A stretch of DNA of 64,000 nt from Centroscyllium fabricii (Eukaryota): the NCBI GenBank assembly GCA_051313645.2, contig JBNRSN020000002.1:577220001-577284000 (forward strand), written 5' to 3'. The translations under genes and the position numbers were made by a program. Shown piece after piece: positions 15,706 to 58,738 of this stretch. A model generated the notes under the pieces. The model made no database searches, was not told the origin of the DNA, and saw only the letters and a list, made by a program, of their open reading frames with translations. Positions within the stretch are counted from its first letter, which is position 1. Every line of letters starts with the position of its first letter.

Positions 15706-16442
15706 CAGGTCGAAGTTCGTTAATCTGGCACGGGCGGGACCAGGCCCATACCGGACATGTGAAAATCCCGAACGACTGAAATTTCGGCGAGCGCATGCGC
15801 AGACCATTAAAAATGGCCGCCGCGAAAGGCCGGCGGCCATTTTGAGTGGTCTGCGCATGCGCTGATCGTTCAGGGAGACCCGGCTCGGGGAAGCTCGCAG
15901 CGGCCAGGCTCGGGGAAGCTCGCAGCGGCCAGGCTCGGGGAAGCTCACAGCGGCCAGGCTCGGGGAAGCTCGCAGCGGCCAGGCTCGGGGAAGCGCGCAG
16001 CGGCCAGGCTCGGGGAAGCTCGCAGCGGCCAGGCTCGGGGAAGCTCGCAGCGGCCAGGCTCGGGGAAGCTCGCAGCGGCCAGGCTCGGGGAAGCTCGCAG
16101 CGGCCAGGCTCGGGGAAGCTCGCAGCGGCCAGGCTCGGGGAAGCTCGCAGCGGCCAGGCTCGGGGAAGCTCGCAGCGGCCAGGCTCGGGGAGGCTCGCAG
16201 CGGCCAGGCTCGGGGAAGCTCGCAGCGGCCAGGCTCGGGGAGGCTCGCAGCGGCCAGGCTCGGCTCGGCCATTGTGAATGATCTGCGCATGTGCTCGCCG
16301 TTTGGCGGCGCATGCGCAGATCATTCGCCGAAGCATCGATCGCGGTGGCCATTTTGCGCATGCGCAGGGCAGTCGGGGAAATTATTGCCGGACGTTCGAA
16401 GTCGCCGGTTTTTCGGGTGCCGGATTAACGAACTTCAACCTG
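15706..16442. mobile_element. Tigger/pogo-like MITE with GCGCATGCGC hairpins and an internal 25-bp minisatellite
   Basis: TA|CAGGTCGAAGTTCGTTAATCTGGCAC ... GTGCCGGATTAACGAACTTCAACCTG|TA. Confidence 0.9.
15880..16262. repeat. 25-bp GC-rich minisatellite, ~15 units (cggccaggctcggggaagctcgcag)
   Basis: Direct tandem periodicity of 25 bp. Confidence 0.97.
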
Positions 16443-16783
16443 TATTCTGCGGGGCAGTACAATGCCTCTTCATATTGCCTGCAACAATCTTTTACTGTTT
16501 GAGTACATTTTCTGTGAGGTAATACTGGCCTTAACACACTGGGCTATTCCTGCTGCATTATCTACTTTCACCCTCTGGCCGCAGCTGCTCATGTCACTGG
16601 TATTCCATTGCCCGGCTAATGCAAGCAAGGTGCATCCACCCAGAGGAAAGCTATGGGCCATGTTTACTTCCAATTGTCTTACTTCCTGTCTCAGTTGTGA
16701 ACTATTGCAAATCAATGTATTGCGTCTACTTTTAGAATTCTCCTATGGGAATCCAGTTGACTGTAGATTTCTCTTGTTCACAG

Positions 16784-17224
16784 GCCCACCAGCTTCTCAT
16801 CCTCAAACCACAGCAAGTTTGCCACCCGCGGGACCAGCAGCGTACGCACAATATTCTACTCCGCTACAGAATATTCCCTCGAGCATAGCCCAGGGTGGTA
16901 GCTCTCTTCAGCCTCCCTATCCCGGGCAACCCGCCCCTGTGTCAGCTTTCACCTCTCCTCCCACATCTAGTCTTACCGGCATGAGTCTCCCTGCTCCACC
17001 CGGGGCGCAAAGACCCCCAACAATGCACGGACCACCACTGCCAGGGCAGCCTCCGACAGGGCTCCCTCCGTCCCAGCCTCCGACAGGACTTTACCCGTCC
17101 CAGCCTAATCACGGGTCTGTGGGTCCTCAACCAGGTATGCCAGGGGTCGTGCCTGGTCCCCCACCTCAGGGCTTTCAAGTACATCCGACACAACCAAGTC
17201 AGGGATTTATACCTCAACAGAACG
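16784..17224 (+). CDS. SEC24C: SEC24C coding exon 4 (Pro-rich)
   Basis: ttgttcacag| ... |gtaagt; PPASHPQ...GFIPQQN; 441 nt, phase 1 to 1. Confidence 0.93.
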
Positions 17225-17526
17225 GTAAGTCTTTTTATGCCTAATACTTGGCGCAGCATTTTAAGCAGTGGAGGTGACTTATTTGCTGTTTTGTGTAATA
17301 TTCCCCTCAAGCAATAAATTGGTGAAGCAACTGTTGTACATAAGATGAACCAGTTCGCACCACCTTGTTTATCTGCTCCAACCGCCGTGGTCCCAGTTGC
17401 ATCACATGCCAGTTTGTGCCTGTGTCCTTTCAAGGAATCTGCAACAGGTTCAGCTAAAGGAAAAGGAGAAAAGAAAGATAACTTCTCCAATTAACACCCA
17501 AGTAATTTAGCTCTATATTTTAGCTC

Positions 17527-18097
17527 AAGGTGAGACCACACCTTGAGTACTGTGTGCAGTTTTGGTCTCCTTATCTAAGGAAGGATGTTCTTGCCATGGA
17601 GGGAGTGCAGAGAAGATTCACCAGGCTGATAACCTGGGATGGCAGGATTGACATATGAGGAGAGATTGGGTAGACTGGGTTTGTACTCTCTGGAGTATAG
17701 AAGATTGAGAGGGGATCTCATCGAAACATATAAAATTCTAACTGGTCTCGACAAACTTGATGCAGGAAGAATGTTCCCGATGATCGGAGAGTCCAGAACC
17801 AGGGGTCATAGTGTAAGGATAAGGGGTAACTCATTTAGGACAGAGATGAGGAGGAATTTCTTCACCCAGAGAGTGGTGAACCTGTGGAATTCTCTGCCAC
17901 AGAGGGCGGTGGAGGCTAGTTCATTGAATATATTCAAGAAGGAGCTGGATGTATTTCTTAAGGCTAAAGGGATCAAGGGATATGGGGAGAAGGCAGGGAC
18001 GGGGTGAGTTTGGATGATCAGCCATGATCGCATTGAATGGCGGAGCAGGCTCGAGGGGTCGAATGGCCTACTCCTGCTCCTATCTTCTATGTTTCTA
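17527..18097 (+). mobile_element. 5'-truncated CR1 LINE
   Basis: ORF2 C-terminus RLRGDLIETYKI...NFFTQRVVNLWNSLP plus CR1 tail. Confidence 0.93.
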
Positions 18098-18419
18098 TTA
18101 ATCGGGGTGGGGGGGTGAAGCAGTTGTGAAACGTCGAAGATGAAAATTAAACATTTTGCCAACTTTTCATTGGATATTTTCAGTGAAGCGGGGCAGGAAT
18201 ACTGTGAAAATAAGTCAACCTCGTGCATGTACTCTTCCAACCTCTGGCAGTCTTCTTTACTTATTGTACGTCAAGCTAATTAGAGGCTCTTGGGGATGCA
18301 TCATTGTTGAACATATTGATTTTCAGCACGATACAATCCAGGACTGAAAAGATTTCTATCTGCACCAGCCCCCAACCCCCCCAAACTCGAGATCAATCCA
18401 CGATTACTGCATAACCCCC

Positions 18420-18680
18420 CTGCACCAGTAATTTTTAAGATAATTGGCAAAAAAACCAAGGGGGAGATGAGAATTTTTTCTACGCAGCGAGTTCTGATCT
18501 GGAACGCGCTGCCTGAAAGGGCGGTGGAAGCAGATTAAATAGTAACTTTCAAAAGGGGCATTAGATAAAAGCTTAAAAAGGAACCATTTGTAGGGCTGTA
18601 GGGAAAGAGTGGGGGAGTGGGACGACAGTAATCGGAGAGCATGATGGGCCGAATGGCCACCTCCTTTGCTGTATGATTTT
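18420..18680 (+). mobile_element. Older CR1 3' fragment
   Basis: Degenerate end of ORF2 and tail gatgggccgaatggccacctcct. Confidence 0.65.
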
Positions 18681-18943
18681 ATAATGCCTTGTTTCTGTTA
18701 GATGTGTATTCCGTAGATCCTATTAAATATACGCTTACTATATTCCATTTCAATCAGTGAATGTGTGCAAATACAGATGAAATTTGGACAATCCAATTTG
18801 CAGCAGCACTGGCCTGTCTCGTTGAGCTGTGAATGGGTAGGAGCTCCCTGTATTTTGCTCATCCCCAGCTATGCTGCTCGAAATGTTCCTTGGTGTTCTG
18901 TTGTTTGCCACTTCGTTCTCCTTGATTTGTGATGTCCTTGCAG

Positions 18944-19068
18944 GTTCTTTTGGACAAATGAGGGCGCCCCAGCCAAACTATGCTGCACCTTACACTGGAA
19001 CACCAAATTACAACAATCAACCCCAATCACAGCAAAAGCGCTTGGACCCAGACAGCATTCCTAGCCCT
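18944..19068 (+). CDS. SEC24C: SEC24C coding exon 5
   Basis: ccttgcag| ... |gtaagc; SFGQMRAPQPNY...KRLDPDSIPSP; ends phase 0. Confidence 0.95.
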
Positions 19069-21289
19069 GTAAGCACCACCATTTTTAACTGTAGTACCTT
19101 TGGCGGCTGTTCTAATGTTTGCAAACTGCTTTGTCCATTTTCTCTCTCTCTCTCTGCTCTAAACTGCTTGTACAAGGATTTGCCTGCATGTGTCCAATGT
19201 TTGCAAACTGGTTGGAGACTTGAATGTAATCCCCAATATATTCTTGTCACGTCTTTATTTGAACATGTTTAGACATTTGCGTAAATATGCACTAAAGTCT
19301 CATAACTGCATCTGAATAATGCAACCCTGCTCACAACACAACTTTATAATAGTTCCTCCACTAAAACGTAGTGTCAGTACCTGAGTATATAGTGACCTGG
19401 CCCCAATCCCCTCTGCTTCAGTTTGGTGTCCTGCACTCTGTCTGAGGCGGTTGGTACTGTAACTCTGGCAGAGCAGACCAGTCTGTTCCTGATCTGCTGC
19501 CAGTGTGCTGGCCTCCACTCGCTTTTCCTCCTTTCCCTTTTCCAGCTTTCTCACTCCCAGCCCTTCTCGGCCGGCACCTCCTTGTTGTTTCTCGGGTTGC
19601 AGCTTCGCTGAGCCTGATGTCCCGCGGCTCCGGCCTGGTGCCCTGTGCTTGATTGGCACTGCCATGCACTCACCTGCTCCTGTCCCAGTCCTGCGCTCCT
19701 GTCGGAATTGGACTCCTCGGTGTTGGTTTCTCTCCTCTCTCCATCTTTTCTTTCTCTGGCGCCAAGTCTGGTGCTGATTGCTGCAGCACTCAATCCGTGA
19801 GAATGGGAGCAAGAGTCTGCTAGTGGAGTCAGTTAGACAGGAGAGCAGCACTGGGCTAGAAGCCGGTAGTCAGCCGTTGGCTCTTGTTGAGACTTGCTGT
19901 AATACCAACCTTGTTATAATGTGCATTTGACTTGTAACCCTCGGTGACATCTTAACGAGGCTGGTCCGTTACTGGTAACTGATAATAATGCTCAATTATG
20001 GAGGATACATTAATGCTTATAAATTTCTGTCAATTAAAAATCCCTGGTTTCTATGGTGTAGTATTGGTGCATTCCTAGAGTTATTTTAGTAAGTACCTTC
20101 TAAAAACAAACTAATTTTAATATTTGAATGTTAATTTTATTCTGGTGAGTCATTGCTGACTAGTTTGGGATCTTAAGCTGCACTTGGATCTGGAGTCAGA
20201 TGATGCAAACAGTATTTCTGCTAAGGTGATGGGTGAGGTGCCTGAATATTTCTGAAACAACCTCGAGAGGTGTGTAAGATAGCAAACCGTACAGAAAGAG
20301 TAGGTTCAGAATCTAACTTCAAACTAAATTGTGATAGTGGGATCATGTTTGTTGAGGATGACGTTGGGATTGTTGGGAAACAGTTTGTTGCCGGTATTGA
20401 CCAGCACATGGAATGGACTTTCGGGTAGGGTAGTGGAGATGAGTACTCTAGAATAATTTAAGAAACCCTTGGATGCGATGATCGGGAGACTGTCGGGTCT
20501 CTCTGGGTGAGCTTAAATGGCTTTCCTTATCTGTTTGGACCGTGTGATGGCCTCAAGGCTTTTCATTCAGGGTTTGAATAAAGATTCCTGAAAGTAGATG
20601 ATGGCGATTACAAGCCTTGTGCCTTTGTTTGGCCGACTTGTTTAGTTTCTGGGGAAGGTGTTGCACTCAATTGGTTTTGCTCTGACTAAACTGCTAACTT
20701 TCGTCCAATTGATCCATTGAAGGAAATGTAAGAAACAAAAGGTCATCCATCCAAAAGGTCATCCATCGAGAGTTCGGCTTAAATGATAATTCAAGAACAG
20801 TGAGCACCCTGGCGTGCTCCAGGGGTTAATGTAGGCACGCACAACTCTGATGGAACAAAGTGATCATGTTTCACTCGAAGGATAGTGTGACCTGGACAGA
20901 AGGAAGTAAATTTTCAGTTGCCGTTCATTTTTGCCATATGTCACCATCTTGGCAGGGAATTCTGGCGCGGGAGTTTTGTCTGTCAAAACTTCTCAACCTG
21001 GGAAGGGATGAGTGAGAAATAACAACAGAAAATGCTGGAAAAACTCAGCAGGCCAGGCAGCATCGGTGGAGAGAGAAATTGAATTAACGTTTCGGGTTCT
21101 GACCCTTTATCAAAACTAAAGTTGGGGAATGAAACACAAGCAGGGAGGCGTGGGGCGGGCGGGGGGAAAGGAACAAAGAAGGCAGCACAAAGAGAAAAGA
21201 CTTAGACGAGATTCTGTGGACAGGAGACAGTGGTTGATTAGGTGTGAAAATCACTGGCAGAACAAGAGGTGGCTGCCAGGAAAGAGAAA

Positions 21290-23173
21290 TGATGTGGAGG
21301 TGCTGGTGTTGGACTGGGGTGGACAATTGTAAGAAGTCACACAACACCAGGTTATAGTCCAACAGTTCTATTTGAAATCACAAGCTTTCGGAGCGCAGCT
21401 CCTTCATCAGGTGAAGTGACGAGATTCATTTAAACATAGCAGACTGTAACATTTGACCCTTTGATCTCAGGCTGACTGATATGTTAAAACACCTTTGATT
21501 GCTTTGATGTCCCTCAGCAGAGGTGTGATGTGAAACAGCTGGAGAGACAACNNNNNNNNNNNNNNNNNNNNNNNNNNNNNNNNNNNNNNNNNNNNNNNNN
21601 NNNNNNNNNNNNNNNNNNNNNNNNNNNNNNNNNNNNNNNNNNNNNNNNNNNNNNNNNNNNNNNNNNNNNNNNNNNNNNNNNNNNNNNNNNNNNNNNNNNN
21701 NNNNNNNNNNNNNNNNNNNNNNNNNNNNNNNNNNNNNNNNNNNNNNNNNNNNNNNNNNNNNNNNNNNNNNNNNNNNNNNNNNNNNNNNNNNNNNNNNNNN
21801 NNNNNNNNNNNNNNNNNNNNNNNNNNNNNNNNNNNNNNNNNNNNNNNNNNNNNNNNNNNNNNNNNNNNNNNNNNNNNNNNNNNNNNNNNNNNNNNNNNNN
21901 NNNNNNNNNNNNNNNNNNNNNNNNNNNNNNNNNNNNNNNNNNNNNNNNNNNNNNNNATAGAATATATAGTATATANNNNNNNNNNNNNNNNNNNNNNNNN
22001 NNNNNNNNNNNNNNNNNNNNNNNNNNNNNNNNNNNNNNNNNNNNNNNNNNNNNNNNNNNNNNNNNNNNNNNNNNNNNNNNNNNNNNNNNNNNNNNNNNNN
22101 NNNNNNNNNNNNNNNNNNNNNNNNNNNNNNNNNNNNNNNNNNNNNNNNNNNNNNNNNNNTATATATAGATAGAATATATAGTATATATATATATAGATAG
22201 AATATATAGTATATATATATATAGATAGAATATATAGTATATATATATATAGATAGAATATATAGTATANNNNNNNNNNNNNNNNNNNNNNNNNNNNNNN
22301 NNNNNNNNNNNNNNNNNNNNNNNNNNNNNNNNNNNNNNNNNNNNNNNNNNNNNNNNNNNNNNNNNNNNNNNNNNNNNNNNNNNNNNNNNNNNNNNNNNNN
22401 NNNNNNNNNNNNNNNNNNNNNNNNNNNNNNNNNTATATATATAGATAGATAGAATATATAGTATATATAGATAGATAGAATATATAGTATATATAGATAG
22501 ATAGAATATATAGTATATATATATAGATAGAATATATAGTATATATATATAGATAGAATATATAGTATATATATATAGATAGAATATATAGTATATATAT
22601 ATAGATAGAATATATAGTATATATATATAGATAGAATATATAGTATATATATATATATATAGATAGATAGAATATATAGTATAAATATATATATAGATAG
22701 AATATATAGTATATATATATATATATAGATAGAATATATAGTATAAATATATATAGATAGATAGAATATATAGTATAAATATATATAGATAGATAGAATA
22801 TATAGTATATATATATATATATATATATAGATAGAATATATATATATATATATATCTTTAGAGAGAGAGAGAGAATATTTAGTATATGTATATAGAATGA
22901 ATATTTAGTATATGTATATAGAGTATGAAAATATATAGGTATATATAGAGAGAAAATATATAGGTATATATAGAGAAAATATATAGGTATATATAGAGAG
23001 GAAAATATATAGGTATATATAGAGAGAAAATATATAGGTATATATATATATATATATGCTATGTTTAAATGAATCTCGTCACTTCGCCTGAGGAAGGAGC
23101 AACGCTCCGAAAGCTTGTGATTTCAAATAAAACTGTTGGACTATAACCTGGTGTTGTGTGACTTCTTACAAAC
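21290..23173. mobile_element. Penelope-like insertion with inverted ends, each carrying a hammerhead motif; interior gapped
   Basis: ~21325-21441 is inverted at ~23057-23171; TSD GAAAGAGAAA (21280-21289, 23174-23183). Confidence 0.72.
21958..23057. repeat. AT-rich compound simple repeat (atatatagt(at)n agatagaat), with N gaps
   Basis: Direct tandem repeats. Confidence 0.95.
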
Positions 23174-23803
23174 GAAAGAGAAAAGAAAGGCTAAATAAAC
23201 ATCAGAAAATGCTGGAAAAACTCAGCAGGATAAAAAGAGGTTCCTCTGCTGTAGTCACCTTTACACCGCTGACCATTTAACAATACAGTGGTTGTAGACA
23301 CTCTACTGTCTAGACGGTTCAGCACGCTCAGCTGATGGATCTGTCTGGGTAAGTGGCTTGCACAAGGCTGATGGGGAGACTAAAAGGGGCATTAAAACAT
23401 TACACCATTTAAACTTCAACTCTGTATATTATAGTTTCATGCTGTATTTCTGTTAAAAATGTACTTTATTTTTGTCTCATTTTTCTGAATTAATGCTGTT
23501 GGACAAGTTCAAAGTTGAAAAGCTAACTCTTTACTTATGTATGAATTTGTAGATCTTGCCAGAATATTTTTAGCTTGCTTTCTAATATTAAAGCTGTAGA
23601 AATGTGAAGGGCCCTGCATATGGCATTAAGATGAACAGATAATCAGTCTAACTGAATAACACAACTTGCATGTGCAATGATGTATGTGTAAACGTATGTC
23701 AAAGGACCTGCTGATGTGGCACCATTAGTGTGGGAAGATAGAAGTAACAATTGTTACTCTTCTGTTTCTCTCCTGTTTTGCTGCTCATTTGTGCCTTTTT
23801 AAG

Positions 23804-23872
23804 CAACTTAATGAACTGCCACCTCAACAGAAAACAAGACATAGAATAGATCCAGATGCAATTCCTAGTCCA
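23804..23872 (+). CDS. SEC24C: SEC24C 69-nt in-frame cassette exon (QLNELPPQQKTRHRIDPDAIPSP)
   Basis: gcctttttaag| ... |gtaagt; 23 codons, phase 0-0; repeats the DPDxIPSP motif. Confidence 0.88.
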
Positions 23873-24481
23873 GTAAGTCTGCTTGTATGTATGTGTGCTG
23901 TTACTTTCTGCATTCTGCCTTTGCTTTAACTCCAGAACGCTTGTTGATCTCCATACGTCAACTACATGCTGTAAGGTCACGAAATCTCATCAGCTAAATT
24001 GCACTTCACCTTGTGCATCCTATTTTACAACGCGACATTATTGTAAATGTTAAATGACTTCATACAACTGTACTCGTTCCATGTGAATTTTTACAGTGCA
24101 ACTCGTTCTGACACAGTGCTGGAACTTTATAGCCATATAACTTGGATTGGTTCGTGTTTGAGCAAATTATCCTGGTGATCTGCTTTGGTACCTTACAGAC
24201 ATGTTTTAAGAGGATAGTGTTAGAAACTTAAATCAATTGCTTGAATCAAATTTAAACTTGCATACTTAACTTGGCAAACATTTGTGGTCTTAGTTTTAAT
24301 TTGCAGCACTGACGAGCTTTTTTTGCAAGATGTCACTGTTCTTTCTAATTGCACCGATATCAATATCCTCGTGAAAGAACGCAGATCATTTTAACTCTGC
24401 CGCATGCATTTCATTGTTTCCCAAATCGTGCACAAGAGTCAGAAACCCTCCTGTAACTTTTGTCCCCTTTTGGTTACCTTA

Positions 24482-27881: not shown

Positions 27882-27926
27882 CTGAACTTGCACAGTTCCC
27901 TTCAGGATCTTCTACAGCTGGAAATA

Positions 27927-28247
27927 CAGGTTGCGCACCGTTAATCCGGCACCCTTGGGACCAGGCTGGAGCCGGACAACTGAAAATTCCGAACCACTGA
28001 AGGTTAAGGTAGAACGTGTGGGTAGGACACTCCCCGGGGCCCGGAGCACGCGGGTAGAACACTCCCCGGGAGGGAGCCTGGGGATAGAACACTTACAAGC
28101 CTTTTAAAAAAAACAGAAACCCAAACGCCCGACTCCTTCGGCGCGCGCCCACCCTTCGCGGGAAACGGTGGCCCCGCCGAGCGGCTGCTCCGCAAACTGA
28201 AGAGCGCCGGTTTCGATTCGGGTGCCGGATTACCGGTGCTCAACCTG
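27927..28247 (-). mobile_element. Tigger/pogo-like MITE ('empty' sister of 45135-45816)
   Basis: TA|CAGGTTGCGCACCGTTAATCCGGCACCC ... GGGTGCCGGATTACCGGTGCTCAACCTG|TA. Confidence 0.92.
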
Positions 28248-28330
28248 TAAAAGCTATTCAGTTCATCGCACATCCCTCTCCAATCACAGCATCTCATTGT
28301 ATTTTCAATATTCCCAGTGTATATTCCTTG

Positions 28331-31983: not shown

Positions 31984-32563
31984 CAGGTTGAGCACCGCTC
32001 ATCCGGTAACCAAAAAGCCGGCAACTTCGGTTGTCCGGCATAATTGCCCTGACTGTCCTGCGCATGCGCAAAATGGCTGCCGCAGTCGATGCTTCGGCAA
32101 ATGATCTGCGCATGCGCCACCGAACGACGAGCGCATGCGCAGATCATTCAAAACGGCCGCCGGAGGCCGGACTGACCTTTGCCTCATTCGTGTGCCGCCG
32201 AACGGTAAGGATCTGTCGCTCGCTCCGGCCTCTCTCCCTCAGCGCTGCCCGGGACCGGGACTGCGCTCTACTAACTTGTTAGTGCTGTGCTGGGCCTACA
32301 GCCTAGGCCTTAATTTATGGTGGTGGGGTGGGGGGAGGGACCCATCCTGTCTGCCTGTTGAGCCGAGCCGAGGGATCTTTGCACGGCGGGTTCTGGGCGG
32401 CTGCAGCTACACTGCAGGTGATCAAAACTTCCGGGGGCCATTTCCAATGTTGTGCGCATGTGCGTGGCCATTTTGAATATGGCCAACTTCATTCTCCCGG
32501 TTTTTTTCGGTATACCGGCGCGGGCCTAGTCCCGCCCGTGCCGAATTAACGGTGCTCAACCTG
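31984..32563. mobile_element. Tigger/pogo-like MITE related to 15706-16442 (opposite orientation), different interior
   Basis: TA|CAGGTTGAGCACCG ... CGGTGCTCAACCTG|TC; ~32010-32150 is the reverse complement of ~16275-16415. Confidence 0.88.
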
Positions 32564-39196: not shown

Positions 39197-39354
39197 CCCT
39201 CTTTAAATGATGGGTATGAAGGCTTATTTGCTAAACAATCTGAACTATTTCTAGTGTCTGATACAATTATTAGAATGGAAATATATGTAACCTCCATCAT
39301 TTCTTTAAATTTGACTAACTGTATTAACCATTGCATTTTGTCTTCTAATCGCAG

Positions 39355-39493
39355 CTGCCCCCTTACATCGTAGATCATGGTGAGACTGGTCCAGTAAGGT
39401 GCAATAGGTGCAAGGCTTACATGTGCCCCTATATGCAGTTTATTGAAGGTGGGCGGAGGTTCCAGTGTGCATTCTGCAGCTGTGTCACTGAAG
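39355..39493 (+). CDS. SEC24C: SEC24C coding exon 9 (zinc finger)
   Basis: tcgcag| [46 protein letters not shown] |gtaatc. Confidence 0.96.
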
Positions 39494-40482
39494 GTAATCC
39501 TTTTTGTCCCATTGGAAGGAAACTGTTGAGCTATCTGAATATTTTCCCCCTCTTGTTCAACCTCCAAATAAAATACTATTGGAGAACAGCAGAGTCAAGT
39601 TCACAAATCTCCATGCAGCACCGTGTTGAAAGTGACTGTGTTGAACAGGTCACGGGGCTGCACTTCAGACTTGACATGCTTTGCTTTTCCCTTGCCTTCC
39701 CCACACTCTCTGTGGAAGAGGGAACTGAAACCAGCCCTCTGCTGGGCACCTGAGTGTAAATTTCTGTTGAACAGCGTCTGGTCTCTGAGTGCTCTAGCTC
39801 TCTCACTCCCAGGCTAGCTGCTCTACAAAACGTTTGATGTGTCATCAGATGCACCTCTCTAGTTTTTGACACTTTTAAGATGCTTTTTCTAGAAATGCAC
39901 GTTGTTGTAATACATAACTTCAGTTTAAATGCAGCAGAATAAAGAGGGTGGTGCATGTCGGTACCAACGATATCGGTAAGAAGCGGGAAGAGGTCCTACA
40001 AGCAGAATTTAGGGAGCTAGGAGCTAAATTAAAAAGTAGGACCTCAAAGGTAGTAATCTCTGGATTGCTACCAGTGCCACGTGCTAAGCAGAGTAGAGCG
40101 AGCAGGATAGCTAGATTAAACACGTGGCTTGAGCAGTGGTGCAAGAGGGAGGGATTCAAATTCCTGAGGCATTGGAACCAGTTCTGGGGGAAGTGGGACC
40201 TGTACAAAAGGGACGGTCTGCACTTGGGCAGGACTGGAACCGATGTCCTGGGGGTAACATTTGCTAACGCAGTATGGCAGGGGGATGGGAACCTAGGCAG
40301 TGAAACAGGGGGAAGTAATATGCAGTCTGAAACAAATGGTAGAAGGGTGAGAAGCAATAGGGAAAGGCTGAGTAAACAAGGGCAAGAAACACAAAAGGCC
40401 ACGCCAAAGCATAAATCTAAAAGGACAACGGGTGTTAAAAAAACAAGCCTGAAGGCTCTGTGTCTTAATGCAAGGAGTATCC

Positions 40483-44477: not shown

Positions 44478-44822
44478 CTGGTTGAGCACCGTTAATCCGG
44501 CACCCTCGGGACCAGGCCGGTGCTGGACCACTGAAAATTCTGAACCACTGAAGGTTCGGGGGAGCACGCGGTAGAATACTCCCCAGGGCCCGGAGCGCAC
44601 AGTCGAACACTCCCCGGGAGGGAGCCCGGGGCTGGAACTCTTACAAGACGTAAAAAAACAGAAACCCAAACGCCCGACGCCTTCGGCGCTCGCCTACCCT
44701 TCGCAGGAAATGGTGGCGCCGTCGAGCGGCTGCTCCGCAAAATGAAGAGCGCCGGTTTCCAATCGTGCCGAACCACTGAAGCTGCCAGACCATCGGGTGC
44801 TCGATTACCGGTGCTCAACCTG
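44478..44822 (-). mobile_element. Tigger/pogo-like MITE ('empty' sister of 45135-45816)
   Basis: TA|CTGGTTGAGCACCGTTAATCCGGCACCC ... CGGTGCTCAACCTG|TA. Confidence 0.92.
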
Positions 44823-45134: not shown

Positions 45135-45816
45135 CAGGTTGAGCACCGTTAATCCGGCACCCGATGGTCCGGCACCTTCAGTGGTTCGGCAGAAATCGAA
45201 ACCGGCGGCCTTCAGTTTGCGGAGCAGCCGCTCGGCAGTGCCACCGTTTCCTGCGAAGGGTGGGCGAGCGCCGACGGCGTCGGGCGTTTCGGTTTCTGTT
45301 TTTGAGTGTTCTATCCCCAGGCTCCCTCCCGGGGAGTGTTCTACCAGCACGCTCCGGGCCCCGGGGAGCAAGGCAACGACTGGGCTATAAACCATGGACA
45401 GCCACGGCAGGAAAGTAGTGGTCTGTGACAACGGAACCGGGGTAGGTTTGTATTTTATTGGCCTAGATGCGAGAAGAGGAAGTGAAGCGGCGGCCCGGCC
45501 ACGCCTCTCTCCCCTCAGCCTCGCTCCCCTCAGCCTCTCCCTGCGGCCCAGGGTGAGGGCTCTGCGGTCACAATACCTCACCGTGCGCGGCAGTCCGAGT
45601 GTGTGGGCGTGGGCGGGATTTCTCTCCGGCAGCACCACCGCGGCCTGGTATTACTGACGGCTCCGTGAGCACCTGAGAGGCCGAGCCTCCTCCACTCACC
45701 CCCTGCACCTCTCACTGCAACCGCTTGCATTTATGTTTAGCTTCAGTGGTTCGGAATTTTCAGTAATCCGGCACCGGCCTGGTCCCGAGGGTGCCGGATT
45801 ACCGGTGCTCAAGCTG
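45135..45816 (+). mobile_element. Tigger/pogo-like Pack-type MITE carrying an ACTR2 exon-1/intron-1 fragment
   Basis: TA|CAGGTTGAGCACCGTTAATCCGGCACCC ... GGGTGCCGGATTACCGGTGCTCAAGCTG|TA; ~45369-45740 absent from sister copies. Confidence 0.92.
45394..45441 (+). pseudogene. ACTR2: Captured first coding exon of ACTR2 (Arp2): MDSHGRKVVVCDNGTG then donor gtaggt
   Basis: 15/16 identity to the recalled vertebrate Arp2 N-terminus MDSQGRKVVVCDNGTG; similarity stops exactly at a GT donor; Kozak accATGG. Confidence 0.88.
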
Positions 45817-48339: not shown

Positions 48340-48433
48340 TTTGTTAGAACAGATTCCTGAGATGTTTGCTGATACCAGAGAGACAGAGACAGTCTTTGGA
48401 CCAGTCGTTCAGGCTGGCCTCGAGGCTCTAAAG
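48340..48433 (+). CDS. SEC24C: SEC24C coding exon 13
   Basis: (C)22 ag| [31 protein letters not shown] |gtaaga. Confidence 0.96.
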
Positions 48434-48796
48434 GTAAGACTCTCTTTTATATACAAAGCTGCGTAGAATTACCATTTTGTTTTAACAATGACCATTGAAT
48501 ATCCACATCAGTGGGATTGCAGCTGTGTACAGTGACGCCACTATTCCCAGCCAGAATGGAGATGATTGGGTCATTGCCTCGTCAACCCCGCCTGGAGACC
48601 GCATTGCTGTCAGTGATTGGGATTGATTTTACGCACCTAATTTGTATACAACTATCCTCCATTCGCTGCATTTCGCTGGAGAAATAATCCTGCTTTTATC
48701 AGGAGAAGTTGCTGCAGTTTCTGTCATGAGTTTTGTTTGCGGTAAGTCCGTAGAGACTCTTATGTTTGCCGTAAGTCCCACCCTGCTTCCAACTCA

Positions 48797-50710
48797 TTGG
48801 CTGACCCAGGTGTCAGTAGACACTCTGACCATTGACTGACCCAGGTGTCGGTAAACACTCTGACCATTGACTGACAGGTGTCGGTAAACACTCTGACCAT
48901 TGACTGACAGGTGTCAGTAGACACTCTGACCATTGACTGACAGGTGTCAGTAGACACTCTGACCATTGACTGACCCAGGTGTCAGTAGACACTCTGACCA
49001 TTGACTGACCCAGGTGTCAGTAGACACTCTGACCATTGACTGACACAGGTGTCGGTAGACACCCTGACCATTGACAGACACAGGTGTCAGTAGACACTCT
49101 GACCATTGACTGACACAGGTGTCGGTAGACACCCTGACCATTGGCTGACACAGGTGTCAGTAGACACTCTGACCATTGACTGACCCAGGTGTCGGTAAAC
49201 ACTCTGACCATTGACTGACACAGGTGTCGGTAGACACTCTGACCATTGGCTGACCCAGGTGCAGGTAGACACTCTGACCATTGACTGACACAAGTGTCGA
49301 TGGACACTCTGACCATAGGCTGACACAGGTGTCGGTAGACACTCTGACCATTGACTGACCCAGGTGTCGGTAGACACTCTGACCATTGGCTGACACAGGT
49401 GTCGGTAGACACTCTGACCATTGGCTGACACAGGTGTCGGTAGACACACTGACCATTGACTGACCCAGGTGTTGGTAGACACTCTGACCATTGACTGACC
49501 CAGGTGCAGGTAGACACTCTGACCATTGACTGACCCGGGTGCAGGTAGACACTCTGACCATTGACTGACATGGGTGTCGGTAGACACTCTGACCATTGAC
49601 TGACCCAGGTGTCGGTAGACACTCTGACCATTGGCTGACACGGGTGTCGGTAGACACTCTGACCATTGACTGACCCAGGTGTCGGTAGACACTCTGACCA
49701 TTGGCTGACACAGGTGTTGGTAGACACTCTGACCATTGGCTGACACGGGTGTCGGTAGACACTCTGACCATTGACTGACCCAGGTGTCGGTAGACACTCT
49801 GACCATTGGCTGACACAGGTGTCGGTTGACACTCTGACCATTGACTGACACGGGTGTCGGTAGACACTCTGACCATTGGCTGACACGGGTGTCGGTAGAC
49901 ACTCTGACCATTGACTGACACAGGTGTCGGTAGACACTCTGACCATTGACTGACACGGGTGTCGGTAGACACTCTGACCATTGACTGACACGGGTGTCGG
50001 TAGACACACTGACCATTGACTGACACGGGTGTCGGTAGACACACTGACCATTGACTGACACGGGTGTCGGTAGACACTCTGACCATTGGCTGACACGGGT
50101 GTCGGTAGACACTTTGACCATTGACTGGCACAGGTGTCGGTAGACACCCTGACCATTGACTGACACGGGTGTCGGTAGACACTCTGACCATTGGCTGACA
50201 CGGGTGTCGGTAGACACTCTGACCATTGGCTGACACGGGTGTCGGTAGACACTCTGACCATTGGCTGACGCGGGTGTCGGTAGACACTCTGACCATTGGC
50301 TGACACGGGTGTCGGTAGACACTCTGACCATTGGCTGACACGGGTGTCGGTAGACACTCTGACCATTGGCTGACACGGGTGTCGGTAGACACTCTGACCA
50401 TTGACTGACACGGGTGTCGGTAGACACTCTGACCATTGACTGACCCAGGTGTCGGTCGACACTCTGACCATTGGCTGACACAAGTGCTCTGACCATTGGC
50501 TGACACGGGTGTAGGTAGAGACTCTGACCATTGGCTGACACGGGTGTAGGTAGAGACTCTGACCATTGGCTGACACGGGTGTAGGTAGACACTCTGACCA
50601 TTGACTGACACAAGTGTCGATGGACACTCTGACCATTGACTGACACAGGTGTAGGTAGACACCCTGACCATTGGCTGACACGGGTGTAGGTAGACACTCT
50701 GACCATTGGC
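48797..50710. repeat. 35-bp minisatellite, ~54 units (ctgaccattgRctgacacgggtgtcggtagacact)
   Basis: Direct tandem periodicity of 35 bp. Confidence 0.98.
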
Positions 50711-50742
50711 TTGGTTTGCTGATCAGTATTTTCTACTTGCAG

Positions 50743-50859
50743 GCAGCAGAATGTGCTGGCAAACTGTTTATATTCCATTCATCCCTGCCTCTCGCTGAAG
50801 CACCTGGAAAGCTGAAGAATAGAGATGACAAGAAGCTTATTAACACAGACAAAGAAAAG
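50743..50859 (+). CDS. SEC24C: SEC24C coding exon 14
   Basis: cttgcag| [39 protein letters not shown] |gtagga. Confidence 0.96.
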
Positions 50860-50949
50860 GTAGGATAGTCAAGATGCCTTTTCCATAATTTGCAATTTAT
50901 TATTTGCAAGGTATTTGAAAAATGAAGCACTTTGAGTAAAAAAAAATTT

Positions 50950-51280
50950 TAAGCGTTCTCTGGGTGTGGGTGAAGCGGGCAGTGCCACATTTACTGCCCA
51001 TCCCTAGCTGTCCTGATGGCATTAAGAGTCAACCATGTAAAGTGGGACTGGAGCCATGTGTTGGCCAGACCAGGTAGAGGGTGGCTGCTTCCCTTCCTGG
51101 AAGGGTGTTGGTGACCCTGTTGGGTTTTTACGACAATCCAACACCTTTCACGGTCATTTTATCTGATGCTAGCCCACAAATCACCAGATTTAAGAAATTG
51201 AATTTCCCAATTTGCCACGGTGGGATTTAAATTCTCAACCCCAGGATTGTTAGTCCAGTACCATAACCACGAGGCTGCCA
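50950..51280 (-). mobile_element. Third-family SINE, degenerate
   Basis: Similar to 15255-15685 and 60465-60890. Confidence 0.65.
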
Positions 51281-51837
51281 TACCTGTCATAACCTCGGTT
51301 TTCTACACAGGAGCAGTTTAAGTCTGCAGGACGTGATCCTGTGTCTGTGCTGAGCCATTGCAGAAAGTCAGCGAGTGATGTGGGTCAGTGCGAAGAGGAA
51401 AAGCTTTGCGAACCAATGGGTGAAGGGAAGCGGGAGTGGAGACCCCAGAAAGAATGGGAGGGAGGGAATGTGGATGAAGGTCACAGAAGAATGGGCGATT
51501 TAGAAGGGGAAAAAAACAACTCGCAAGAAGCATTTCTTGTGGGAATTGTGTGCGTTTTTAAAACAAAATGACTGGTTAGAGAATCGTGTCCCCTTAACCA
51601 ATTTGAATGCTTCAACATTCAAGTCAACTGGAGCAGCTTTTAATGCATGAACCGTGGAAAGTAATGTCCGACTAAGAGGCAATCCGCTGCAAATAAAACA
51701 CTGATACTGTGTTCATATGCGATGTACAGAGGCTTATCAAGTGTACCTTGATTATTTCTCTCCCTCCCTCCCCCTGTCTCTCTCGCCTCTCTCTTTCTTT
51801 CTCTCTCTCTATTAAATGTATACATTTGTTTTTGCAG

Positions 51838-52008
51838 GTTCTGTTCCAACCTCAGACTAGCTTTTACAATAACCTGGCCAAGGAGTGTGTTGCACAAGGC
51901 TGCTGTGTGGATCTCTTCCTATTCCCCAATCAGTACGTTGATGTGGCTACTTTAGGGCTGGTTACTTACCAGACCGGGGGTTCCATTTACAAGTACACCT
52001 ATTTCCAG
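51838..52008 (+). CDS. SEC24C: SEC24C coding exon 15
   Basis: tttgcag| [39 protein letters not shown]...YKYTYFQ |gtaatg. Confidence 0.96.
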
Positions 52009-52147
52009 GTAATGTTTGTAATTTGTGCCATTGCAGTAGCTACACAGGAATTTCACAACTGTCCTTCAGAGGTTTAACTTAGACCTGCCTCCTCCTATGC
52101 ACAAATATCGGACTTTTTGACGATTCTTTCAGAGCTGTTATCGAGGA

Positions 52148-53075
52148 AAGTTCAACTTCAAGTTTATTGTCACATGTACTAAATGCAATCTAGACAGTGA
52201 AATGCTTACTGCTATCCGAATGCACCGTGCAACAAGGACATTAAGCTGCCCGGCACGCACGAGCCCGCAAGACGTCAGACATTCTCCGGCGCCATCATCG
52301 TGGGTCCTGATCCTGCTACGGCCTCTCAGTACGATGTTAATTGTCCTCCGTTAACTTGCTCTGCTGCTGTTTCTTCCATGGTTACTCTTCACATGACTCC
52401 TTTCTGTCCGACACCATTCCGGCTCCCCCGAATCCACGGAGCTCCGAACTCCGGGTGCAGCATCCTGAGGCCTGGGGCCTAGCTTTTGTCCAAGCACCAT
52501 TCCGACTCCCCCGAGCTCCGGACCAAGGCCTGGGGCCTAGCCTGGCTCTCCTCCAGGTGCCCAATCTCGGCTCCTCCAGACCAAGGCCTGGGGCCTAGCC
52601 TGGCTCTCCTCCAGGTGCCCAATCCCGGCTCCTCCAGACCAAGGCCTGGGGCCTAGCCTGGCTCTCCTCCAGGTGCCCAATCCCGGCTCCTCCGGACCAA
52701 GGCCTGGGGCCGAGCCTGGCTCTCCTCCAGGTGCCCAATCCAGGCTCCCTCGAGCTTCGGACCAAGTCCTGGGGCCTAGCTCTCCTCCGGGCGCCCAATA
52801 CAGGCTCCCCAGATCTCCGAGCCAAGGCCATCCCGACTCCCTGGAGGTCCAAACTCCGGACCGAGGCCTGGGGCCTAGCATGCGGCCCGGCGCCCATCCC
52901 GGCTCCCCGAGTCCTCCGAGCTCACTCCCGATGGCCGATCGGCGCCCCGCATCTTACCGGGCTCCCTCCCGGCGTTGCTGATGTCGGATGGCGGCCGATT
53001 TAAGTAAATTAACTTCACGTAGAGGTGTGGCCGCCATGAATGGCGACCGCTCCAGCCAGGACTGGAACCGGAAAT
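52148..53075 (-). mobile_element. Non-autonomous element with a Rex1-like tail, GC-rich body and internal 58-bp repeats
   Basis: Minus-strand end gacaataaacttgaagttgaac resembles the Rex1 tail at ~33810-33833; 58-bp tandem units ~52520-52760. Confidence 0.55.
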
Positions 53076-53294
53076 GTGCATTCTTCATGTAACAAGGAAT
53101 GTTTTCTCACATCTCCCATTTATAGTTAACTGGTTAAAGGGCAGTGATTTTTGAGCTGTGTCACTTAGAATGAATTGCTACAATAAAAAGTGATTTTAAA
53201 ATAGATTTTTCTTTTGAATTGATTTTAAAAGTCACTGTCATTTCTCTGTTTGGAGACTAAATGGTGGCCTCCTCCGATTGTGATTCAGAAGGTA

Positions 53295-53569
53295 GATACA
53301 TAGATACATAGAAAATAGGTGCAGGAGTAGACCATTCGGCCCTTCGAGCCTGCACCGCCATTCAACACGTTCATGGCTGAACATGCTACCTCAGTACCCC
53401 GTTCCTGCTTTCTCGCCATATCCCTTGATCCCCCTAGTTGTAAGTATTACATCTAACTCCCTTTTGAATATATTTAGCGAACTGGCCTCAACAACTTTCT
53501 GTGGTAGGGAATTCCACAGGTTCACCACTCTCTGGGTGAAGAAGTTTCTCCTCATCTCAGTCCTGAATG
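53295..53569 (-). mobile_element. CR1 3' fragment (subfamily of 39935-43997)
   Basis: Near-identical to the reverse of 43730-43997. Confidence 0.9.
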
Positions 53570-53821
53570 TCCAGATTCCTTGTGCATACGGAGTGCAGGT
53601 CACGCCTCTCGTATTGCTGGTCACTGCGGTCGGAGTAAGCAGCTGTGGGAAGCTTCCATTTCAAATAAAGTAAGCTGATACTGCAAACTTCTGAAAGTGT
53701 CCCACCCTGGGGAAGTTGGAAGTGGACTCGAGGCCCCAGTACCCCAGTGAGCAGTTTCTGATGATCTTGGCGGTTACATCAGGGAGGTGTGATGAGCAAC
53801 AGAGCAGGAAGAAGGTTCCCG

Positions 53822-54345
53822 TTTTTTTTAATCCATTGATGGGATGTGGGCGTCGCTGGCTGGCTAGGCCTGCATTTAGTGCCCATCCCTAATTGCCCTT
53901 GAGAAGATGGTGGTGAGCCACCTTCTTGAACCGCTGCAGTCCATATGGTGTAGGTACACCCACAATGTTGTTAGGAAGGGAGTTCCAGGATTTTGGCCCA
54001 GCGACAGTGAAGGAGCGGCTATACAGGTCCAAGTCAGGATGGTGTTTGGCTTGGAGGGGAACTTGTAGGAGGTGCTGTTCCCATGCGTCTGCTGCCCTTG
54101 TCCTTCTAAGTGGTAGAGGTCGCGGGTTTGGAAGGTGCTGTTGAAGGAGCTTTGGCGAGTTGCTGCAGTGCATCTTGTAGATGGTACGCACTGCAGCCAC
54201 AGTGCGCCGGTGGTGGAGGGAGTTAATGTTGAAGGTGGTGGATGGAGTGCCAATCAAGCGGCCTGCTTTATCCTGAATGGTGTCGAGCTTCTTGAGTGTT
54301 GTTGGAGCTGCACTCATCCAGGCAAGTGGAGAGTATTCCATCACA
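53822..54345 (-). mobile_element. 3' fragment of the second LINE lineage
   Basis: Near-identical to 36640-37135. Confidence 0.92.
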
Positions 54346-54410
54346 CATCCCGATGATCGGAGAGTCCAGAACCAGGGGTCATAGTCTTAGGATAAGGGGT
54401 AAGCCATTTA

Positions 54411-54818
54411 CATAGAAACATAGAAGATAGGAGCAGGAGTAGGCCATTTGGCCCTTCGAGCCTGCTCCGCCATTCAATGAGATCATGGCTGATCATCCAA
54501 ACCCAGCACCCCGCCCCTGCCCTCTCCCCTCTCCCCATATCCCTCGATCCCTATCGAGCCTGCACCGAGACACATCCCACCCGATCCCCGTAACCCCACA
54601 TATTTAATCCCCCTAACACTAAGGGCCAATTTATCATGGCCAATCAACCTAACCCGCACATCTTTGGACTGGGAGGAAACCGGAGCACCCGGAGGAAACC
54701 CACGCAGACACGGGGAGAATGTGCAAACTCCACACAGATAGTACCCGAGGCTGGAATTGAACCCGGGTCTCCAGTGCTGTGAGGCAACAGTGCTAACCAC
54801 TATGCCACCGTGCCGCCC
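54411..54818 (-). mobile_element. V-SINE (HE1-like) with CR1-derived tail
   Basis: Full head, V-domain and tail. Confidence 0.92.
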
Positions 54819-55297
54819 GGTATGTGTGCTTTCTTGGCTGGAGATGGCGTGTGGTGCAAAGAGATGAATAAATAAGGGATAGGGAGGGGGAAAGTGTCGG
54901 AGCATTATCATAAATATGTGCTGACATAGTTACCGAGAGCAAGACTCTAATGAGGTTTTACATTTCCTAGAGCATACATCCAGAATTGCCTGTACTGTTG
55001 ATGTGGGAATTGCCGTCTATAACTTCTTTCTGAGCCACAGATTGTATCTGCCCATGAACGCTTTAAAGCCATTACTTGACCAAAGTGCAAGATAATAGTG
55101 AAACTGAATCCCGTAGAGTAGCTATCAGAGCCTCCTTAAAAATGAGGAAAAGCCTATAAAAAAATTCTAAACATTGCTCCACACACAGTATCAACATTTT
55201 TTGTTGAAAAAAATATTGTAAGTACCTTATTAACTGGCAGAGCAGGCTCGAGGGGCCAAATGGCCGACTGCTGTTGTGGGTTCAAGTCCTACTCCAG

Positions 55298-55562
55298 AGG
55301 ACAGAGATGAGGAGGAATTTCTTCACCCAGAGAGTGGTGAACCTGTGGAATGTTCTACCACAGAATGTAGTTGAGGCCAAGTCATTAATATATTCAAGAA
55401 GGAGTTAGATATATTTCTTGGAGCTAAAGGTATCAAGGGCTATGGGGCGAAGGCAGGGACAGGGTACTGAGTTTGGATGATCAGCCATGATCTCATTGAA
55501 TGGCAGAGCAGGCTTGAGGGGCCGAATGGCCAACTCCTGCTCCTATCTTCTATGTTTCTATG
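55298..55562 (+). mobile_element. CR1 3' fragment
   Basis: ggacagagatgaggaggaatttcttcacccagagagtgg... plus tail. Confidence 0.9.
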
Positions 55563-57226
55563 TAACTACTTTCCAGAAAAAAGCACGACTGGGGACTGTG
55601 TTGCTCAGACTGCTCTTGCACACTTAATTGATGCCACAAATTGTCTGCTCTCTTGGTGTGTGGAGGAGAGGGAATTTGTAGCCACAATCTTGGTAATGAG
55701 CTGCCCATGAGGGAGCAAGAAAATTTGGCTGAGACTGGACAACTATGAGCAATGGGGTGAGGATCTGTCCGGCCACCCATCCCGCCTGGATGCCATTGGT
55801 GGCAACCTTGACGAAGTCTGGCCTGGACCATCACACCTTGCAGCCAGTGCGGTTTACCATTGGTACAAGAGGTAGAGGATTGCTGGGGAAGAGGCAACAC
55901 CACTGGTGATTAATAAGAGAAGAGTTATGGGACGATTTTGGATTTTGGTTGTACCTTTTAGTAATGTGAGGTACTCATTTGTCCTGCTTTCAACTAGTAT
56001 TCTAATATTACACACAGGTGAGATTTTGGCAAACAGCTGTTCATGTTGTACAAAAAATGTACTGTTTTATGGCCTCATATCCTTATTTAGCAACAGCTTT
56101 TCATAAAGTTGATATAATTTTCCTTGTGAGCAAATGAATACAATTACGATCAATCATTAAACATGGTTGGTTTGTATCCATAAGTTGCTGGGTAAAAGTT
56201 GTCGTTTATGTGCAGCAGAGTTTAAAAGTTGCCCCTGATGTAGTGAAGGACTCGGTTTGTGCAGATGGGCCCATGACATCACTTCTTAAAATCCATGACA
56301 TCATTTCCTCAGTAACTGGCCCATAATGCTCTGACAAGAGTTATATAGAACTACTGACAAATATAATTAAAAAATTCAAAAATTACTTATCACAGGGCTG
56401 ACTTTCATTAATCGTGTGTTTATGGAAGACAGTTTGCAGCAGCAGAAGTATAATTAGGGTTACAGATTTACTTCCAACTGGTTGCTAAAACGGCTTTGTA
56501 AGTAAGCCTTGTTTTCAATCAAACATTGCATCTTTTTGAATGTTGCAATTAATGATTTAGCATTCACTTTATAAAAATAAAATAAAAAAGAGAATGAATT
56601 AACTCTCATTATATTGCTCTCTAAATATTGCAGGAGTTGAGCATCCCATGAGTTGGGAGCTTGAATGTTTAAGTGTCTGGTTTAAGGAGATGTAAAATAA
56701 CATCAGACTATTTGGATATACTGTAGCTTCTTTCTCCCACCAAAGCCTCCTCCCAAGAAGACTATTTTTGCAAACACATCCCTCACAATTAGTATTCTGC
56801 AATGACTTGCATGAAATGATCTGCTTGGGTCATATCTTGGGGGTTGAGGTTTTAGCCCCAAGGCCTGAAGGTGTAATATGGACTTTGGTGGCATTGGAAA
56901 ATACACTACTTGAGGACCCAGCTGTTTGACTCATAGTGCGTAGCAATCTGCAGTACTCGACTGGAGGAGAGTTGTCTGCAAGTAGTTAACTTGGATTAGG
57001 TTCGGTTGTCAATTTCTGATTCCTGTCCTCTTGAGGAAAAAATATAGTTGACTTCATTCCTTAAAGCTCTTAATTTTTACATCAACATTTTGGCCCTCTG
57101 AAGGCGCTTGCAATTTTATGGCTTATTCCAAGAGAACTGTTCAAACTAAAGAGCTTGCTCCTTTAGAGGGGAAAGTAGCCTTTACCTTGGCATGCAGATT
57201 TTAAAGTGCTATTTGTTTCTTTCCAG

Positions 57227-57323
57227 GCACAGGCGGATGGGGAGCGCTTCCTAAATGACCTACACAGGGATGTTCGAAAAGTGATCGGGTTTGATTCTGT
57301 GATGCGGGTGCGCACAAGCACGG
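57227..57323 (+). CDS. SEC24C: SEC24C coding exon 16
   Basis: ttccag| AQADGERFLNDLHRDVRKVIGFDSVMRVRTST |gtatgt. Confidence 0.96.
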
Positions 57324-57413
57324 GTATGTTACTTCATGAACGGCTGGCGTTTTTAACAATCTCATTGAAAATATCGTGTGACCAGACTTGTAGTCCATAT
57401 CGTACAATTTCAA

Positions 57414-57589
57414 GAAGTCGCACAACACCAGGTTATAGTCCAACAGTTTTATTTGAAATCACAAGCTTTCGGAACGCTGCTCCTTCATCAGCTTGTGATT
57501 TCAAATAAAACTGTTGGACTATAACCTGGTGTTGTGTGACTTCTTGCATTTGCCCACCCCAGTCCAACACCGGCACCTCCACATCATGG
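57414..57589. mobile_element. Penelope-like palindromic insertion with a minus-strand hammerhead motif
   Basis: TSD GTACAATTTCAA (57402-57413, 57590-57601); CTGATGA-A-GGAGC-agc-GTTCC-GAAAGCTT on - strand. Confidence 0.75.
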
Positions 57590-57678
57590 GTACAATTTCA
57601 ACACAGCTTTCGACCTGTGAACAGCCTTTGATCTTTGTACCTATGCTGTAATTGTTTCTCATGGGCTGCACTTTCATA

Positions 57679-57929
57679 ACATAAGAAATAGGAGCAGGTG
57701 TCGGCCAGTCGGCCCCTCCAGCCTGCTCCGCCATTCAATAAGATCATGGCTGATCTGATCCTAACCTCAAGTTTACTTCTACTCTCCATCCCGCCCAAAC
57801 CCATGTGATCACCCGGAAGAGGCGAAAAACCAGATAAAAAACCCAGTGGCCAATTTGGGAGAAACAATCTGGGAAATTCCTCTCCGACCCATCTAGGCGA
57901 TCGAAAACTGGTCCAGGAGATCACATGGC
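57679..57929 (-). mobile_element. CR1 extended 3' UTR only
   Basis: Reverse of 1104-1355. Confidence 0.9.
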
Positions 57930-58151
57930 CTCAATCACTGACTTGTTTTCGTGTCCTGCACGTGTATATGCAAAGCTCAATCTTCACATTATTATTTTTA
58001 TCCGGCGCTGTGCACTTCCATCATATCTTGGGTGCGATTTAGTTGCATTGAATACCAACAGACTTGTTAATCAGTGACTAAGTGGAGATTGCATTAATTG
58101 AAAATGATTCAAAATAAACTTTGACCACACAGAGCACTAATCTACGATATA

Positions 58152-58738
58152 CAGGTACACAACCCTTTATCCGAAAACCTCGGGACCGGGCGGGTTTCGG
58201 TTTTCGGATAAATACGGTTTTTAGGGTTGGCCCCAGTGCACATGTGCAGATCGCTTGCGCATGCACATTGCCGTGTTTGCGGCCCAGCTCGCGGTCGGGG
58301 AACAGCATATCGGCCGTTTGCAGGGGGAGGCCGGCCGTTTGCAGGGGGAGGCCGGCCGTTTGCAGGGGGAGGCCGGCCGTTTGCAGGGGGAGGCCGGTCG
58401 TTTGCAGGGGGAGGCCGGCCGTTTGAAACATAGAAGATAGAAGCAGGAGTAGGCCATTCGGCCCATCGAGCCTGCTCCGCCATTCAATGAGATCATGGCT
58501 GATCATCCAAACCCAGTACCCTGTCCCTGCCTTGTCCCCATATCCCTCGATCCCTATCGAGCCAGGGGGAGGCCGGCTGTTTTTTTCCTCAGCACGGCAT
58601 CAACAGCACGAGATCGGGGTAGGAACGTGTTTTTTCTGCTGCAGCTTAAATCATTTTTTTCTTAAATAAATTGAAGAAAAACGTCGGTTTTTGGAGCTTT
58701 TCGGTTTTTGGAGTTGCGGATAAGGGATTGTGAACCTG
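58152..58738. mobile_element. Tigger4/MER46-like MITE with an internal 21-bp repeat and nested SINE tail (58426-58562)
   Basis: TA|CAGGTACACAACCCTTTATCCG ... CGGATAAGGGATTGTGAACCTG|TA; (ggccgtttgcagggggaggcc) ~5 units. Confidence 0.88.

Follow-up and report, generated by a model that had tools for sequence, protein, structure and literature searches.

Host gene starts probably captured and dispersed by miniature Tigger-like transposons in the genome of the shark Centroscyllium fabricii

The introns of the SEC24C gene of Centroscyllium fabricii harbour six MITEs (miniature transposable elements with inverted repeats), here E1 to E6, within a stretch of 64,000 nucleotides that we call the window (assembly GCA_051313645.2, contig JBNRSN020000002.1, positions 577,220,001 to 577,284,000 of the forward strand); coordinates without a contig (C) or locus (L) label are those of the window. 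We conclude that non-autonomous MITEs of the pogo/Tigger group very probably took up host gene starts and afterwards multiplied at many TA sites. Three sources of captured DNA were traced, at ACTR2, at the gene pair NPRL2/cytochrome b561 and at CENPW, which partly bears out the proposal of an earlier sequence-only reading of the window: an abundant pogo/Tigger MITE system has repeatedly captured and dispersed the 5' ends of host genes, where that reading spoke of pieces of housekeeping promoters. Each captured piece likely spread to tens, hundreds or thousands of places. The process, gene capture of the Pack-TIR type (TIR, terminal inverted repeat), is already known; here its scale is unusually large.

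All six elements were found where the sequence-only reading had placed them, each with inverted ends related to those of the others, and the one-base TIR variants reported for two of them were confirmed (left end at 44478, right end at 45816). Five share one type of end (A type): E1 (15706-16442, minus strand), whose backbone is rich in palindromes; E2 (27927-28247, minus); E3 (31984-32563, plus); E4 (44478-44822, minus), which belongs to the class of E2 (85% identity over 304 bp); and E5 (45135-45816, plus). Their strands were assigned from the homology of their ends to the 5' and 3' ends of an autonomous family, Tigger-C. A strict end pattern matched 10 times in the window, at the ends of E1-E5, and not once on the reversed sequence; a looser pattern was rejected, because the reversed control matched equally often. 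The end of E6 (58152-58738, minus) is related to, yet distinct from, the A-type end and matches that of a sister family, Tigger-B, so that the single family originally proposed holds for five of the elements, with E6 assigned to a B type. TA was said to flank all six; it is present on both sides of five, the exception being E3, where the right flank reads TC. The subterminal GGGACC block, noted as common to most, occurs in five elements, with a one-base variant in the remaining one. E2 and E4, described as empty, in fact hold a CpG-rich core of ~190 bp that they have in common with E5, and their class is ancestral to the carrier of the ACTR2 piece. As the sequence-only reading had suggested, the ends presumably resemble those of human Tigger4/Zombi-MER46 (pogo-group transposase domains, TA target, short TIR beginning CAG).

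The six elements have a GC content of 0.56-0.68 and an observed/expected CpG ratio of 0.85-1.07, versus 0.54 for the window. Thus, their CpG richness stands as first described, but the AT bias of the surrounding gene is slight (GC mostly 0.42-0.50), and under a lenient test CpG-island composition was found in 338 of 1199 background windows of 300 bp, as against 16 of 18 hand-picked interior segments.

E5 combines an E2/E4-type backbone with the captured start of ACTR2 (45363-45736, plus strand, in sense with SEC24C), which took the place of a short stretch in a parent element of that type. As the sequence-only reading had recognised, the interior encodes the beginning of Arp2, namely residues 1-16, with 15 of 16 identical to Arp2 in the PDB (E=2.2e-4). 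The piece comprises ~30 bp of 5' untranslated region (UTR), the 48-bp coding exon 1 (45394-45441), the splice donor (45442) and ~295 bp of intron 1; it contains no core promoter, and the motifs recognised by eye in the host ACTR2 promoter (CCAAT-, CRE- and E-box-like) lie upstream of what was captured. The parent locus, C1044:145,860,295-145,860,668, is 81.9% identical to E5 over 387 bp and has no transposon ends, and ACTR2 exon 3 follows ~39 kb downstream on the same contig. There are two ACTR2 paralogs in the genome (C1044:145.86-145.90 Mb and C956:0.92-0.97 Mb); the second was rejected as the source, with only 51 bp aligning at 82%. Searching with the ACTR2 interior gave 454 candidates genome-wide. 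Among the 40 that were scored, all but the copy in the window match at 91-93%, and they represent 30 loci on 16 contigs. The ACTR2-loaded element is thus present at distinct sites and transposed further after the capture.

A second class, represented by the element at L116, carries the entire head-to-head promoter of NPRL2 and a cytochrome-b561 gene, which we take to be CYB561D2, together with the first coding exons of both genes. Its parent, C1156:5,726,003-5,726,377 (L308:3003-3377), is 86-88% identical over 386 bp and has no transposon ends. NPRL2 was identified by a PDB match, and the b561 exon (PF03188) lies 23 kb away on the correct strand; the locus was reached via PF03188, as PF06218 had no match in the genome, and the peptide of L116 found nothing at the protein level (0 of 19 candidates). 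The search with this cassette gave 2,945 candidates. In a third class, identified by a PDB match to CENPW (E=2.2e-4), the cargo is the CENPW proximal promoter together with most of exon 1; its parent at C1:428,958,824-428,958,977 (L352:9024-9177) is 81-85% identical to five copies over 112-154 bp. A search for the MITE backbone at this locus found no match, CENPW exon 2 lies ~11 kb downstream, and the cassette occurs in at least 25 further places. The description of the cargo as housekeeping-promoter pieces therefore fits the whole NPRL2/b561 promoter and the CENPW proximal promoter, but not the ACTR2 piece. Three of about 15 cassettes were traced, picked for their recognisable coding starts, and an enrichment of captures for promoters or gene starts is unproven.

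Since the pieces retain introns or non-transcribed promoter DNA, they were captured at the level of DNA, and capture was followed by transposition, serial chimerism and deletion. In L238, the traced NPRL2 piece is fused with a different piece, and the chimeras at L324 and L346-348 combine cassettes of several classes. A plausible course of events would begin with repair or replication stalling at hairpins or short direct repeats inside an element. The stalled synthesis would then switch template to the open, GC-rich DNA of gene starts (gap-fill or FoSTeST type), repeated rounds of capture would produce chimeras and internal deletions, slippage would turn internal units into minisatellites, and Tigger-C would amplify the loaded elements in trans. 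The hairpin of the backbone has a stem of 18 bp (z=-3.5). By eye, several cassettes begin at one common backbone position, and a few bases are common to both sides of the ACTR2, NPRL2 and CENPW junctions, an observation made with no chance control.

The sequence-only reading had called for an autonomous pogo transposase, and two families with homologous ends were found. The DDE_1 profile gave 1,715 candidates in the genome, and the 45 loci fetched comprised 41 Tigger-C, 3 Tigger-B and 1 solitary locus; open pogo frames of 618 and 679 codons contain CENP-B_N, HTH_Tnp_Tc5 and DDE_1. The GGGACC end of E1-E5 aligned best with the 3' end of Tigger-C (z 4.9-6.3; for E4, 5.7 against Tigger-B), and the opposite end aligned with the 5' end of Tigger-C at z 4.8-5.6 in E1, E3 and E5, more weakly in E2 and E4. 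For E6, both ends aligned with those of Tigger-B (z=7.2 and 11.0). From this homology, Tigger-C transposase likely amplifies the A-type MITEs in trans. Among the fetched loci, long-frame copies of Tigger-B adjoin opposite-strand C2H2 zinc-finger frames (L203-L205), which at L204 and L205 extend into the transposon end. The locus L207 (2394-3923) holds a lone pogo-type frame of 510 codons, with no matching copies among the fetched loci, possibly a domesticated TIGD-like gene.

The MITEs are short (300-900 bp), have no transposase coding capacity and reach high copy number. A sample of 399.8 kb, drawn from the 7.2-Gb assembly as 40 stretches of 10 kb at even spacing, contained 27 A-type and 12 B-type ends; the reversed control gave 1 A-type end. 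This corresponds to roughly 33 A-type elements per Mb and, if the sample is representative, to about 2x10^5 copies genome-wide. With only 7 and 8 ends in its 200-kb flanks (2 and 1 on the reversed sequences), the window is a locally rich spot and the density uneven. By their interiors, the 9 complete A-type elements of the sample formed 8 clusters. In a catalogue of 165 elements, many of them obtained by targeted search, TA was present on both sides of 127, on one side of 37 and on neither side of 1.

Other cassettes were followed without reaching a source. The E3 cassette (32164-32421, plus strand; 1,801 candidates), which the sequence-only reading called a second exon-like cassette, is made up of a piece of ~30 bp, 14 bp copied from the backbone and a GC-rich, intron-start-like piece from GTAAG (32205). 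Those 14 bases directly before GTAAG duplicate backbone sequence, and two long-form copies have GTAAG right against the backbone; because the supposed exon end is backbone sequence, the exon is unestablished. E3 derives by internal deletion from a longer cassette, whose long-form-specific segment gave 420 candidates. Five pattern searches for copies not followed by backbone and one DNA search returned element copies only. A lone match to the ~30-bp first piece (L326, C1266:36,077,649) has no backbone beside it and an unrelated gene start ~450 bp downstream; it may be either the source or a remnant. Among the joints listed for three contig runs on L091, none lay at an E3-type donor, which is evidence for neither side; depth in one of them (X3), ~125,000 over the E3-type cassette versus 7-10 on the unique flanks, is not a copy number. 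Source searches with the L042 cassette, which has an acidic reading frame (1,929 candidates), returned element variants or its own copy only, a protein search was negative (0 of 28 candidates) and Pfam gave no match. No source was traced for the interiors of L070, L091, L192, L039, L124, L069, L303 and L305 or for the E2 core.

Several of these cassettes have features of their own. At L346 (~1830-2010), a cassette with several CCAAT boxes, likely another promoter piece, is joined to the L042 cassette (L346-L348); one at L303:3640-4200 looks like the end of an intron, acceptor included, one at L305:990-1500 sits in an E2-type backbone and one at L192:2525-2815 has a donor-like site. Most cassettes, namely those of ACTR2, CENPW and NPRL2 and five untraced ones, share the reading direction of a transposase gene, running from the 5'-type end towards the GGGACC end, and the L192 cassette and the b561 exon read in the opposite direction (E5, E3, L141, L014, L349, L070, L091:178-911 and L039, versus L192); the direction of the untraced cassettes was judged by eye.

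The elements might spread working promoters or CpG islands, unmethylated copies of which would serve as alternative promoters or first exons, for instance E5 in its sense orientation within SEC24C, whose start codon and donor are undamaged. A complete head-to-head promoter is indeed carried, NPRL2-class copies retain the E-box in 24 of 28 cases and the CRE in 23 of 28, and ACTR2 copies keep the start codon (26 of 30) and the donor GT (28 of 30). Furthermore, E1/E3-type backbones (e.g. 32050-32170) bear arrays of NRF1-like palindromes and of YY1-like motifs (up to 10 and 5 per element). Rice Pack-MULEs with promoter pieces are more often expressed (PMC5861414). However, such retention of motifs, start codons and donors is expected at a divergence of only 2-3%, and the ACTR2 piece begins downstream of its core promoter. 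Moreover, CpG transitions in five MITE sets run at 4.0-9.1 times the rate of non-CpG C/G transitions, at or above the levels in transposase and LINE (long interspersed element) sequences (1.5-5.6 times; 4.1-5.6 in Tigger-C and 1.5-4.1 in pieces of LINEs and short interspersed elements, SINEs), a comparison in which older families saturate; in the promoter part of the NPRL2 class, the rate is 0.111 at CpG versus 0.020 elsewhere. Unmethylated CpG islands were rejected on the grounds of this fast decay, from which the copies show no protection. The label CpG-island-like therefore holds for composition, whereas decay is like that of methylated DNA, and the CpG richness of the copies results from their youth and their GC-rich sources. 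In ACTR2 copies, the exon mutates like the intron (0.027 versus 0.020); the exon of host ACTR2, by contrast, is close to the family majority, with differences at 1 of 48 sites as against 24 of 282 in the intron. The captured exons show no constraint, and the copies likely drift neutrally. We thus regard working promoters as improbable, and the copies are likely to be passengers, as far as base substitutions can tell.

It is highly improbable that the interiors are deletion derivatives of autonomous Tigger elements, or insertions of other repeats, with ACTR2 a one-off match. Such an origin applies to some B-type MITEs, two of which (L002 and L144) align to internal Tigger-B sequence, several catalogued interiors are nested SINE/LINE insertions, and no host locus could be assigned to E3, L042 or the core of E2/E4; yet three independent host sources on three contigs largely refute it, and A-type interiors align to neither the Tigger-B nor the Tigger-C body. 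The sequence-only reading would have been contradicted by interiors mapping only to one autonomous consensus and lacking enrichment for host promoters, which is not what these alignments show. A truncated transcript could supply exon 1 with 5'UTR, but retrocopies, like segmental duplications flanked by MITEs by chance, are hardly credible given the intron and non-transcribed promoter DNA in the pieces, the fixed breakpoints within one end pair and the unrelated flanks with TA on each side; the loci examined have no common flanks beyond the ends and no poly-A tails. Against the capture of gene starts by Tigger-type MITEs, which we prefer, several points have to be set. Most cassettes, E3 and L042 included, are untraced and some could derive from other repeats; the candidate counts (454, 2,945, 1,801, 1,929 and 420) are first-look numbers, unverified as copy numbers. 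An exact A-type end was found on no autonomous element among the 45 loci fetched from the 1,715, for which reason we only infer Tigger-C as the driver, and the template switch is likewise a mechanism that we infer. Mutation rates were taken from top-ranked copies, so that divergence is biased low; the copies are likely methylated, judging from mutation spectra alone; and a search of the E2/E4/E5 backbone for NRF1-like or YY1-like motifs found none.

We tentatively raise promoter mimicry, although we consider it rather doubtful: motif-bearing MITEs might remain accessible to transposase in the germ line and so out-amplify empty ones. If so, housekeeping-promoter motifs (NRF1-like, YY1-like, E-box, CRE and CCAAT) in backbone or cargo would drive amplification. 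Sharks would then have been seeded with tens of thousands of promoter-plus-first-exon modules, mostly in the direction of the transposase gene, a minority of which might act as alternative first exons or give rise to small RNAs acting back on ACTR2, NPRL2 and CENPW.

The minisatellites of the window, which the sequence-only reading counted among the interchangeable interiors, are real, but they are local expansions of element-internal units, not captured pieces. The 25-bp array of E1 (15882-16263, strand unassigned; 15.3 copies) has grown from a unit internal to the element, of which sister copies hold ~1 (L091:2790-3187) or ~4.5 (L110). The 21-bp array of E6 (58311-58425; 5.5 copies) is interrupted by a nested SINE/LINE 3' tail of ~138 bp (58425-58563, plus strand), presumably HE1/CR1; eight other copies of this tail in the window are 90-97% identical over 122-146 bp, and further copies are less so. 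The host gene lies on the plus strand, with an exon encoding the Sec23/Sec24 zinc finger at 39349-39498 and another, top match SEC24C (E=6e-25), at 51835-52011. The SEC24C region also contains tandem arrays without the MITE ends, at 5920-7995 (18 bp x 115, CpG-rich), 48795-50708 (35 bp x 55) and 52516-52826 (58-60 bp). No Rfam family matched across the window.

Large shark genomes of this kind will confront gene and CpG-island annotation with thousands of false first exons. The many dated copies of each capture also offer a vertebrate system in which to test capture mechanisms, the bias towards open, GC-rich DNA and the effect of cargo on amplification. We found no published account of such captures in cartilaginous fishes in a literature search that was incomplete, with supplements and repeat databases outside it.

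Gene capture by animal cut-and-paste transposons is described as rare and nearly always single-copy: across 100 genomes, only 4 of 370 animal Pack-TIRs were multicopy, and their copies were few (PMC8277862). The elements described here resemble those Pack-TIRs, which are TIR transposons, TcMariner/Tigger among them, with a host fragment whose parent locus is free of the element; their multicopy cases likewise favour GC-rich DNA, and one frog case contains a 291-bp 5'UTR (PMC8277862). The capture mechanism suggested above agrees with the FoSTeST model (Tan et al. 2021, PMC8277862) and with the bias towards open chromatin described for Pack-MULEs (PMC5861414). In contrast to animal Pack-TIRs, single captures occupy hundreds to thousands of candidate places in C. 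fabricii, and cassette carriers make up a large share of a family of ~10^5 copies. Two other vertebrate systems, the MER6 MITE with a SINE V domain (PMC6887750) and turtle REP-21 CPB (bioRxiv 10.1101/2021.11.26.470093), are similar in that a foreign insert was amplified by a non-autonomous DNA transposon, in the turtle to thousands of copies; their cargo, however, is a fragment of another transposon acquired in one event each, rather than several host gene starts. Rice Pack-MULEs, ~3,000 elements that took up GC-rich parts of genes and of which a subset include promoter sequence, also acquire DNA in connection with open chromatin, but belong to the plant Mutator superfamily rather than to pogo with its TA target, and their expression and methylation were measured (PMC5861414), whereas methylation is read here from mutation spectra. 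Pack-MULEs are mostly low-copy, with 36% multicopy (as quoted in PMC8277862). Thus, gene capture in this vertebrate resembles that of plants, at higher copy number: one MITE lineage captured gene starts repeatedly and amplified them massively.

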